This document shows, one piece after another, positions 44,732 through 46,171 of a stretch of 60,451 bases of DNA. The DNA is from Chlamydiia bacterium. GTDB taxonomy: Bacteria; Chlamydiota; Chlamydiia; Chlamydiales; Parachlamydiaceae. The DNA is taken from positions 1 through 60,451 of the forward strand of contig JBBSJT010000001.1 of the NCBI GenBank assembly GCA_038257035.1, in the 5' to 3' direction. Each line of letters opens with the position of its first letter. Within the stretch, counting starts at the first letter, position 1. Below the pieces are notes generated by a model. The model saw nothing but the letters and a program-made list of their open reading frames with translations, did no database searches and was not told the DNA's origin. Both the position numbers and the translations under genes were made by a program.

Positions 44732-46171
44732 ATGAGTTACGTAAACTTAGGACTATCGCAAGGTGGAAGCATACAGCCTGAGGGCGCAATTAAGAAACCT
44801 GAAGAAGAGGTTGAAGCCAAGCCTATTGCTGTTACAAGTGCAGTCGTCAAAGGTGGGAAAGAAGAACCAAAGGGGTTAGGCGAGCGTATATCCGCTAAAC
44901 TTAAAGAAATTTTTGGCTCGAAAAGTGAATCTACAGACCAGACCCCCTCGCTTAAATTTTCTCAAAAAATAATTAGAATGCTAGTTCCAGGCAGCAAAAA
45001 AGAAGTAAGTGCCAGAACCAATAAGGTAGGAGAACAAAATTTAAAACAAAATCCTGATAATTTTAAAGAATTATCGGATACTTTAACTACGAAATCGACT
45101 ATAGAACCAGGGGACTTGCCTCCTTCAGATTTACCACCAGCTTTACCGCCGGAAGTCAATTCATCGGTAGTTGAAGACAATTCATTCCCAACAGATTTAC
45201 CACCTGCTTTACCGGAAGCTGAGGTCAATTCATCGGAAGTTGTAGACAATTCATTCCCAACAGATTTACCACCTGCTTTACCGGAAGCTGAGGTCAATTC
45301 ATCGGAAGTTGTAGACAATTCATTCCCAACAGATTTACCCCCTGCTTTACCGCCGGAAGCTGAAGTCAATTCATCGGAAGTTGAAGACAATTCATTTCCA
45401 AAAGATTTACCTCCTGCCTTCCCAGCTGCCGATACAGAAACACCTCCTTCTTCAGGCGAGGTACCCATTGCAACCAGAGAGCAAACGCAACAAGCTGCAG
45501 TTCGCCCTCGTCCCGGAGAAAAACGGGTTTTAGATTTAAAAACTCAAGAAGCTCATAAAGCTTATGCAGCGAAGATGAATAACAAACTTGGAATGTTGCT
45601 AGATGAGTTTCCAGAAGGAGAAAAAAAAGCTTCTAAATTAATGGGTCAAGTTCCGAACTTAATTGATATTATGATGTCAGATAGTATTGATAAACCAGTG
45701 CTTCAAAGTATGCCTCGATTGACAAAAAGATTAGAGGTTTATAAAGAAAATTATAAAAATGCAGAGGAAGCTGCAAATAAATTTGGTAAAGGACTTGAAG
45801 CTATAATTAAAAATAAAACTCTTGACCCCCTTGCTAAATCTGCCGAACTTGGTAAGTTTTATACAAGGGAGTTTCAAGATTATGCAAATTTGTTATCACC
45901 ATGTATCTCAAATTATAAAGAGTTTTTAGAAGATACTCAAGGATTTGGCGCGCGGACCGTGGAGAATGAACCTGATGCGGGAAAAGTTTCCCAAAGACTA
46001 AATGCAGCCGGTAATGGCCCTACACAGCGTCTTATGAGACACGGACTTTTGCTTGTTGAGGTGGTTAAAACTATGCCAAAAGATGATCCTCGACGCGCTG
46101 ATTTGCAAAAAGTTTTGGATGAAGTTAATAGAATTACTACTGAGATAAATCTTCGACAAAAAGTTACTTAA
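44732..46171 (+). CDS. proline-rich tandem-repeat protein with C-terminal Dbl-homology (RhoGEF)-like region
   Basis: ATG 44732 follows GGAAGGAGG. The middle has four or more repeats of 22-24 aa (EVNSSEVVDNSFPTDLPPALPEA). The C-terminus GPTQRLMRHGLLLVEVVKTMPKDDPRRADLQKVLDEVNRITTEIN resembles DH conserved region 3 (PvQRi.RY.LLLkeLlK.tp..hpD...L..Al..i.....iN). FYTREFQDYANLLSPCISNYKEFLE resembles CR2. Confidence 0.4.
   Translation: MSYVNLGLSQGGSIQPEGAIKKPEEEVEAKPIAVTSAVVKGGKEEPKGLGERISAKLKEIFGSKSESTDQTPSLKFSQKIIRMLVPGSKKEVSARTNKVGEQNLKQNPDNFKELSDTLTTKSTIEPGDLPPSDLPPALPPEVNSSVVEDNSFPTDLPPALPEAEVNSSEVVDNSFPTDLPPALPEAEVNSSEVVDNSFPTDLPPALPPEAEVNSSEVEDNSFPKDLPPAFPAADTETPPSSGEVPIATREQTQQAAVRPRPGEKRVLDLKTQEAHKAYAAKMNNKLGMLLDEFPEGEKKASKLMGQVPNLIDIMMSDSIDKPVLQSMPRLTKRLEVYKENYKNAEEAANKFGKGLEAIIKNKTLDPLAKSAELGKFYTREFQDYANLLSPCISNYKEFLEDTQGFGARTVENEPDAGKVSQRLNAAGNGPTQRLMRHGLLLVEVVKTMPKDDPRRADLQKVLDEVNRITTEINLRQKVT
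45128..45430 (+). repeat. in-frame tandem repeat (66/69/69/72-bp periods) inside the 44732-46171 CDS
   Basis: GATTTACC.. restarts at 45128, 45194, 45263, 45332 and 45404. The two central 69-bp copies look identical by eye. Confidence 0.9.

Follow-up and report, generated by a model that had tools for sequence, protein, structure and literature searches.

A very divergent Dbl-homology domain ends a proline-repeat protein of a Parachlamydiaceae-like bacterium: a candidate Rho-family exchange factor effector

INTRODUCTION

Secreted bacterial proteins of the SopE group (SopE, SopE2 and BopE) and of the WxxxE group (Map, IpgB1/2 and EspM/T) activate Rho-family GTPases of their host cells. To our knowledge, the characterised bacterial Rho guanine nucleotide exchange factors (GEFs), that is the SopE and WxxxE families, are all convergent and have folds unrelated to the Dbl-homology (DH) domain. 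RalF of Legionella and Rickettsia is a secreted effector with a eukaryote-type Sec7 Arf-GEF domain, and Lane and colleagues are said to have found in 2008 that the repeats of chlamydial TarP bind host GEFs. Here we analysed a stretch of 60,451 nucleotides from a Chlamydiia bacterium (contig JBBSJT010000001.1, positions 1 to 60,451; hereafter the window) and, within it, a gene (window 44732..46171, + strand) encoding a proline-repeat protein of 479 amino acids that ends in a DH (RhoGEF) domain.

DH proteins have been catalogued in bacteria before. Legionella lmi0545, lha2362 and lfa2256 are listed as RhoGEF-domain eukaryotic-like proteins (Gomez-Valero et al. 2014), and Protochlamydia amoebophila pc0323 is listed with a Pfam RhoGEF domain, as EffectiveT3-positive and in the 'early II' expression class (König et al. 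2017, PMC5451489 Data Set S1). All Chlamydiae are reported to carry a type III secretion system (T3SS) (PMC6925127). A first-pass annotation of the window, made from its sequence, held that the known bacterial Rho GEFs are unrelated to DH domains; this applies to the characterised ones and overlooks the catalogued Legionella and pc0323 proteins. The family described here is not categorically new.

RESULTS

A divergent DH domain at the C terminus

The Pfam RhoGEF profile PF00621 matched residues 373-473 of the protein, over profile positions 87-180 of 180, with a score of 36.5 bits for the full protein and 40.4 bits when the last 200 residues were scanned (gathering cut-off, 27.6 bits). This match substantiates two blocks that the first-pass annotation had likened to conserved regions 2 and 3 (CR2 and CR3) of DH domains. 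A Pfam scan at E values up to 10 reported PF00621 and a sub-threshold SpmSyn_N only, with no pleckstrin-homology (PH) family. Searching the PDB with the single sequence gave weak matches, three of four of which were DH proteins; the block GPTQRLMRHGLLL...EIN was aligned to CR3 of ARHGEF3, NET1 or EhFP10.

We further built two profiles, a six-sequence domain alignment (A3) and a 12-sequence alignment of bacterial DH domains (A5). An unindexed search of 1.84 billion representative proteins with A3 returned 32 matches at E <= 1e-3. PF00621 was carried by 27 of the 30 matches that were scanned with Pfam, so the profile picks out DH domains almost exclusively; of the remaining three, two or more were HAMP-repeat proteins. 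The best eukaryote-type matches of this search reached only E ~1e-5, and word-indexed homologue searches with A3 and A5 returned P0007, P0011 and P0033 only. When A5 was run against the PDB, 51 of the 52 matches at E <= 0.01 were DH chains, the best being intersectin-2 (E 3.7e-8), and the alignments to EhFP10, Tiam1 and Asef covered nearly the whole DH domain. Aligning A5 by hhalign with five PF00621-bearing eukaryote-type sequences gave a probability of 98.9% over 177 columns with CR1 included, where MLLDEFPEGEKKAS was aligned with KVIDEFMSTEQSYV. PDB matches of the shallow six-sequence profile to NEMO coiled coils, and the HAMP-repeat proteins P0010 and P0026 from the large A3 search, were discounted as noise from repeats or coiled coils.

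The full-length AlphaFold model was poor, with a predicted local distance difference test score (pLDDT) of 54.9 overall, a helical domain at residues 263-479 (pLDDT 70-82) and disorder at residues 113-261. Its best Foldseek matches in the PDB were almost all DH domains, at marginal scores. Re-modelling residues 263-479 in AlphaFold2 (AF2) with A5 gave a pLDDT of 90.5 and a predicted template-modelling score (pTM) of 0.84, and 47 of the top 50 Foldseek matches of this domain model in the PDB were DH domains. TM-scores normalised to the query (TMq) were 0.70 for P-Rex1 (5fi1), 0.68 for 4yon, 0.64 for Tiam1 (1foe) and 0.63 for Dbs (1rj2), over 205-225 aligned columns. Identity to the eukaryotic DH sequences was 13-18% and the E values were only ~1e-4 to 1e-3. 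No structure of a SopE or WxxxE effector appeared among the top 50. Neither the AF2 model nor the Pfam scan showed a PH domain after the DH domain, and the protein ends 6 residues past the last DH helix.

The profile search and structure prediction that had been proposed as checks thus returned a match above the cut-off and a DH-like helical bundle. Because Pfam, the PDB profile searches, profile-profile alignment and the structure model agree, we are very nearly certain that the C-terminal 217 residues (263-479; 45518..46168, +), all-helical throughout, form a genuine DH fold that is very divergent from the eukaryotic copies. The first-pass annotation was right that a proline-repeat protein here ends in a DH domain, and it placed that domain correctly at the C terminus. 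The domain is larger than was claimed, with CR1 at about residues 286-312 and the whole of 263-479 forming one unit.

Conserved regions and GTPase-contact residues

CR1 (residues 286-312, LLDEFPEGEKKASKLMGQV; 45587..45667, +) was located by MAFFT and hhalign alignments to PF00621-bearing proteins, with E292 and G296-E297 as invariant residues. Its canonical counterpart is E-x3-T-E; the core family has Gly in place of Thr (GE), whereas the distant members P0008 and P0009 keep TE. In a HMMER alignment, the CR1 profile segment LlnEilstEkk was set against YIHELIQTEERY of intersectin-2. CR2 (residues 366-401, the GKFYTREFQDYANLLSPCISNYKEFLE block; 45827..45934, +), in which the Pfam alignment starts (profile position 87), contains the invariant Y377 and Y384. 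CR3 (residues 426-450, GPTQRLMRHGLLLVEVVKTMPKD; 46007..46081, +) was aligned to ARHGEF3, NET1, Vav and intersectin, and its invariant residues are Q432, R433, R436, H437 and L439-L441. R436 stands at the position of the conserved Lys/Arg that precedes a Tyr, and this Tyr is replaced by His. The last DH helix (residues 451-475; 46082..46156, +) ends in ...TEIN, with N473 aligned to the Asn of VNE/INE in Vav, intersectin, ARHGEF3 and NET1. By MAFFT, hhalign and PDB alignments alike, CR1, CR2 and CR3 are present in canonical order and spacing.

In Rho-family GTPase complexes, the CR1 Glu, the CR3 basic residue before the aromatic one and the last-helix Asn contact switch I and switch II, as known from Tiam1-Rac1, Dbs-Cdc42 and intersectin-Cdc42. 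All three contact residues are retained in the window protein (E292, R436 and N473) as judged from positions mapped by alignment rather than in a complex. Among the 12 bacterial DH sequences of A5, E292, E297, Y377, Y384, Q432, R436 and H437 (window numbering) are invariant, and N473 is invariant in six close orthologues. CR1 and CR3 rank with the best-conserved segments among orthologues.

A linker with tandemly repeated DLPP motifs

The DH domain is preceded by an acidic, proline-rich linker (residues 121-262; 45092..45517, +), 20% Pro and 19% Asp plus Glu, that is disordered in the full-length AlphaFold model (pLDDT <50 and without predicted secondary structure). It contains six DLPP motifs, starting at residues 128, 133, 155, 178, 201 and 225. 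Five of the six fit DLPPx[LF]P; one is of the type DLPPS and five are of the type DLPPA[LF]P. Tandem Repeats Finder reported a 69-nucleotide unit (23 residues) in 4.2 copies with 92% matches (45126..45417, +), and the units are in frame, each carrying NSFPTDLPPALPEAEV with the motif FPTDLPPALPE, as the first-pass annotation had described. Its statement that the two central DNA copies are identical has to be amended: 45212-45280 and 45281-45349 share 68 of 69 nucleotides, differ by one synonymous change (CCA to CCC) and are identical as protein only.

A comparison of repeat copies among relatives, also proposed earlier, was carried out, and motif number was found to vary from 2 to 6 between family members, including a difference of 2 versus 3 inside one cluster at 90% identity (P0009 versus P0038). 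The DLPP columns are invariant among orthologues although the linker overall is only 27% conserved. Orthologue forms of the motif are SDLPPPLPE or DDLPPPLPE (P0002, P0005 and P0008) and TDLPP[TSN]LPE, and the motif recurs in the distant member P0009 as EDLPPDLPFDT. Judged from these sequences, the DLPP motif is evidently a selected element of the linker whose copy count is adjusted by tandem duplication.

Two contigs of one metagenome (JGI Ga0105047), L086 at its start and L087 at its end, both break inside the proline-repeat region of an orthologue; the N terminus is on one of them and the DH domain on the other. The repeat seems to have interrupted the assembly here, and complete repeat-rich effector genes are therefore probably under-represented in metagenomes.

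We asked which host ligands the motif resembles. Residues 461-467 of WIP, DLPPPEP, occupy the EVH1 groove of N-WASP/WASP, and functional binding of WIP needs the flanking epitopes FYFHPIS upstream and a KSYPSK helix downstream (PMC7407642). Like this WH1-binding motif of WIP, CR16 and WIRE, the DLPPALPE repeat has a DLPP(P) core followed by Pro and Glu. The closest likeness is in the orthologue forms SDLPPPLPE and DDLPPPLPE; beyond the DLPP core the remainder fits only partly, since the third Pro is replaced by Ala, Thr, Ser or Asn in many copies. Neither FYFHPIS nor KSYPSK was found around any repeat of the window protein. The motif is likewise compatible with a generic PxxP SH3 ligand and, in some copies, with a PPLP WW ligand. 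As far as these short sequences can tell, a WIP-like, an SH3 or a WW partner would be equally possible. An inspection by eye gave no exact fit of the repeats to the ELM-style EVH1 class I (FPPPP) or Homer (PPxxF) motifs, and a literature search for a Dictyostelium WIPa/WH1 motif found nothing.

A conserved N-terminal region

The protein thus has three parts: an N-terminal region (residues 1-120), the linker (121-262) and the DH domain (263-479). The N-terminal region (44732..45091, +) is 70% identical to its counterpart in the orthologous locus L001, and blocks such as GKEEPK and SLKFSQK are invariant across orthologues. Its terminus is polar and disordered, and helices are weakly predicted at residues 49-62, 74-84, 89-106 and 108-119 (pLDDT <55 in the full-length AlphaFold model). 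No hydrophobic signal peptide was seen, the maximum Kyte-Doolittle hydropathy over 19 residues being 0.46 across the whole protein. We regard this region as a putative type III secretion signal together with a chaperone-binding or localisation region.

A small family of orthologues and a wider group of bacterial DH domains

Five full-length orthologues (P0002-P0006; BLASTP identity 42-52%) and a fragment (P0007) were found in metagenome assemblies, and the A3 search added the more distant members P0008 and P0009. PF00621 is listed for P0002-P0007 in a precomputed Pfam column, and P0008 scored 29.0 bits in our own scan. The family comprises about 8 metagenomic sequences that combine the conserved N-terminal region, the DLPP-repeat linker and a DH domain without PH domain, and at least 7 divergent orthologues retain the open reading frame (ORF). 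Among 185,579 GTDB species genomes no family relative was found: 254 matches to two family peptide patterns included none. In the GTDB species-representative genomes the family is either missing or beyond recognition.

Two peculiarities of the window protein recur in a wider bacterial set (P0011, P0013, P0014, P0027, P0031 and P0033), here called RH-type: CR2 is a compact LYxSxxFxxYaxaL, and CR3 reads QRxxRH in place of QRxxR/K-Y. P0011 has Legionella_OMP and Mito_carr as neighbours on a Legionellales-like contig, and the chlamydia-like contig of P0009 has RNase R and LeuRS arranged as in the window; the RH-type subgroup therefore spans chlamydial and Legionellales lineages. These sequences suggest that the RH-type DH domain may be a shared, possibly exchanged effector domain among intracellular bacteria. 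RH-type DH genes were located at 8896-10095 of L088 (Legionellales-like), at 8001-8855 of L084, which also has a TrwB-like gene, and at 7105-9168 of L089, a contig of an NCBI metagenome-assembled genome (MAG) that also has eukaryote-like kinases. Like the window, L088 has a Ku-LigD cluster, located near its RH-type DH gene.

The DH gene changes faster than its neighbours

We compared the DH gene and seven flanking genes between the window and L001. Amino-acid identity was 86-98% for the flanking proteins and 53-61% for the DH protein. Synonymous divergence (dS) was 0.41-0.95 for the flanking genes and 0.82 for the DH gene, whereas non-synonymous divergence (dN) was 0.007-0.074 for the former and 0.286 for the latter, giving dN/dS ratios of 0.015-0.09 and 0.35, respectively. 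The DH region alone had a dN of 0.25 and a dS of 0.76. As the dS of the DH gene falls within the range of its neighbours, the gene was inherited along with them, and allele replacement by transfer was ruled out as the cause of its divergence. The DH protein changes 4-40 times faster at non-synonymous sites than its neighbours while still under purifying selection. Such a pattern would be expected of a functional protein at a host interface.

The gene, its neighbourhood and the host genome

The ORF finder gave window 44690-46171 (+), and the preferred start is the ATG at 44732, because a ribosome-binding site lies just 5' of it and orthologues all begin at that methionine. The ribosome-binding site GGAAGGAGG (44717..44725, +; read from the sequence) contains GGAGG and leaves a 6-nucleotide spacer to the ATG. 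The coding sequence (44732..46171, +; ORF listing and translation) comprises 479 codons and a stop. The longer form from a TTG at 44690 was dropped: orthologues start at the methionine of MSE or MSY, and the ribosome-binding site precedes 44732. A consensus scan found a candidate sigma-70-like promoter, TTGTAA-18 nt-TATAAT (44655..44684, +), at 10 of 12 positions, which is a pattern match only. The 130 bp 5' of the ATG are 82% identical to L001. An antisense ORF at 44962-45468 (-; 168 residues, GGKAGGKS..., repetitive) was rejected as a gene candidate, being a by-product of the tandem repeat on the opposite strand.

On one side of the DH gene is tag, which itself follows cyoABCDE, and on the other is nfeD-floA-yggS. 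L001 and the JGI contig pair L087/L086 show this gene order as well, and the locus has bacterial flanks in three independent assemblies. Together with the ribosome-binding site and a G+C content of 0.40 (0.36 for the window), this indicates that the gene is bacterial and not a contaminant. In L001 a CPBP protease (Rce1-like) gene (5628-6374) is placed between tag and the DH gene, and the 1.3-kb spacing from tag to the DH gene on L087 makes the same gene probable there; the window has a 340-bp spacer only (44392-44731). Farther downstream, adjacent genes at 50873-51958 and 51968-53077 (-), both without family match, hit one and the same L001/L086 gene (74% and 54% identity), which points to a tandem duplication in the window lineage.

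The leucyl-tRNA synthetase (LeuRS) of the window shares 82% identity with its counterpart in a Parachlamydiaceae MAG, 63-65% with those of other Chlamydiota and at most 56% with those elsewhere, so that the host genome is, by this sequence, Parachlamydiaceae-like. An F-box protein of 368 residues (37467-38573, +; PF00646, N-terminal, E 1.4e-6) is a eukaryote-like effector candidate typical of Parachlamydiaceae, and a 542-residue protein (15024-16652, +) has a C-terminal eukaryote-like kinase domain (PF00069, 48.6 bits) and an N-terminal half without family match. The description of the DH protein as a eukaryote-like effector candidate of an amoeba-associated bacterium, given in the first-pass annotation, agrees with this LeuRS, F-box protein and kinase. 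Four large ORFs (280-2262, 13491-14894, 30912-33101 and 35355-37151, all +; 467-729 residues) without Pfam or NCBIfam match are possible lineage-specific effectors. Such content (F-box protein, kinase and large unmatched ORFs) is typical of environmental chlamydiae.

Elsewhere in the window, a non-homologous end joining operon (19536-22845, -) encodes Ku and a LigD split into a ligase/phosphoesterase gene and a polymerase-domain gene. Overlapping tandem genes at 23313-24296 and 24293-25264 (+) each match the C-terminal synthase part of MprF only, and by sequence would be aminoacyl-phosphatidylglycerol synthase-like paralogues. A photolyase-related protein (26238-27704, +) matches PF04244 (DPRP), its photolyase FAD-binding match being weak and below the Pfam cut-off; such a gene is unusual for an obligate intracellular bacterium.

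DISCUSSION

Considering domain, linker and evolutionary rate together, we think it likely, on balance, that the protein is a Parachlamydiaceae effector: secreted, catalytically competent as a Rho-family GEF and provided with host-adaptor motifs. It would be delivered to the host cytosol, most likely by the chlamydial T3SS through its polar N-terminal region. The idea of secretion draws on the T3SS reported for all Chlamydiae (PMC6925127) and on pc0323 being EffectiveT3-positive and early-expressed (PMC5451489). The DH domain would bind protist-host GTPases of the Rac, Rho or Cdc42 type in their nucleotide-free state, and exchange of GDP for GTP would lead to local actin remodelling, for uptake or for shaping of the inclusion. 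The linker would present two to six short linear motifs of the form [FIP]P-x-DLPP-x-LP-E, for which a host proline-recognition domain (WH1/EVH1, SH3 or WW) is the probable docking partner. In this way the GEF would come to sit beside the actin machinery, and docking would stand in for the targeting that the PH domain provides in eukaryotic Dbl proteins. Tandem duplication would tune motif number, and the whole protein would evolve fast under host pressure.

Several observations weigh against this proposal. The PF00621 model aligns with its C-terminal half only, and no PH domain, which assists catalysis in some Dbl proteins, is present. The sequence departs from the DH consensus by GE for TE in CR1, by RH for R/K-Y in CR3 and by a shortened region around CR2, and the last-helix Asn is missing in P0008 and in the RH-type P0027, P0031 and P0033. 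The gene lies among housekeeping genes rather than in an effector island, no T3SS gene was found within the window, and the literature searched contained two catalogue entries only and no functional study of any bacterial DH protein.

The departures in CR1, CR3 and the Asn are the reason for keeping a rival in which the DH fold is a pseudo-GEF or scaffold that binds a Rho-family GTPase, or some other partner in the host, but does not catalyse exchange. It might sequester or relocalise this partner, for example, and the main activity would be that of the linker, through the host adaptors it recruits. The very low identity to eukaryotic DH domains (13-18%, with the best eukaryote-type match at E ~1e-5) and a dN/dS above that of the neighbours would also suit such a protein. 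However, the CR1 Glu, the CR3 basic residue and the last-helix Asn are kept in the window protein and its close orthologues, and conservation centres on CR1 and CR3, which make up the GTPase-binding face; we regard a pseudo-GEF or scaffold of this kind as unlikely. The syntenic locus among housekeeping genes raises another rival, that of a non-secreted protein whose DH-like bundle was co-opted for a bacterial partner, with cyo, tag, nfeD and floA as neighbours hinting at a housekeeping or membrane role. We know of no Rho-family GTPase in Chlamydiota, which counts against such a role. A long disordered proline-motif linker is typical of eukaryotic interaction motifs, non-synonymous change is 4-40 times faster than in the neighbours, and the family occurs only on a few chlamydia-like contigs, with the wider DH subgroup on contigs of intracellular bacteria including Legionellales. 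With the P. amoebophila DH protein pc0323 predicted to be T3-secreted as well (PMC5451489), a purely bacterial function seems improbable.

That the likeness is a chance one to a generic helical bundle or coiled coil, or that the gene is a eukaryotic contaminant, could be argued from the NEMO coiled coils matched by the shallow six-sequence profile, from the HAMP-repeat proteins P0010 and P0026 in the large search and from Foldseek E values of only ~1e-4 to 1e-3. This explanation is effectively refuted by the convergence of sequence, profile-profile and fold evidence, with CR1-CR3 in the right order and spacing, and by the bacterial ribosome-binding site, the G+C content (0.40 versus 0.36) and the bacterial flanks in independent assemblies. 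We finally consider a more specific version of the secreted GEF proposal, in which the protein would be a two-part actin hijacker: DLPPxLP would mimic a WIP/verprolin ligand and cluster WASP-family proteins, and the RH-type DH domain without PH domain would activate, at that very site, a Rac/Cdc42-type GTPase that releases WASP/SCAR. We hold it to be quite doubtful. If it were true, a Dbl-type GEF would have been demonstrated in a bacterium for the first time, and the clade of RH-type DH domains in Chlamydiae and Legionellales would represent an effector family, so far unrecognised, that has spread among bacteria living in amoebae.

For the secreted GEF that we favour, the family is a well-defined candidate for asking whether intracellular bacteria also use the eukaryotic catalytic module for Rho activation. 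The domain model is of high confidence, the catalytic residues can be identified and motif copy number varies naturally; the family may also show how a DH domain functions without a PH domain, with short linear motifs giving the targeting. The signature QRxxRH (CR3) plus LYxSxxFxxY (CR2), common to chlamydial and Legionellales proteins, suggests that bacteria with amoebal hosts in common have passed a eukaryote-derived domain among themselves, and the 4-40 fold non-synonymous contrast with its neighbours marks the DH gene as a host-interface gene.

Compared with known systems, the closest bacterial counterparts are pc0323 and the Legionella entries, which likewise have a Pfam RhoGEF domain in an amoeba-associated intracellular bacterium. 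Compared by description, the DLPP-repeat linker and the conserved N-terminal region mark the window family as separate, and pc0323 adjoins lepA, unlike the window gene. The DH domains of eukaryotic Dbl proteins (P-Rex1, Tiam1, Dbs, intersectin, Vav and Entamoeba EhFP10) share with it the fold and the CR1-CR2-CR3 order, and also the CR1 Glu, the CR3 QR...R/K, the LLL core and the last-helix Asn. The window protein differs from them by its identity of only 13-18%, by GE for TE and RH for R/K-Y and by a shorter segment before CR2; moreover, it is encoded by a bacterial gene and stops at the DH domain, with no PH (or BAR, C1 or similar) domain following.

SopE and the WxxxE proteins would do the same job as that proposed here, activation of host Rho-family GTPases, but are of convergent origin without DH homology, whereas the window protein carries a eukaryote-type catalytic domain. 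TarP of Chlamydia is, in turn, a chlamydial T3SS effector with a repeat region and Rac-dependent actin remodelling at entry. It recruits host GEFs and has no sequence similarity to the window protein, which has a GEF-type domain of its own and in which no WH2 or actin-binding motif was detected. RalF provides the precedent for a eukaryote-type GEF domain in an effector of an intracellular bacterium; it differs in having a Sec7 domain, in acting on Arf GTPases and in using type IV secretion.

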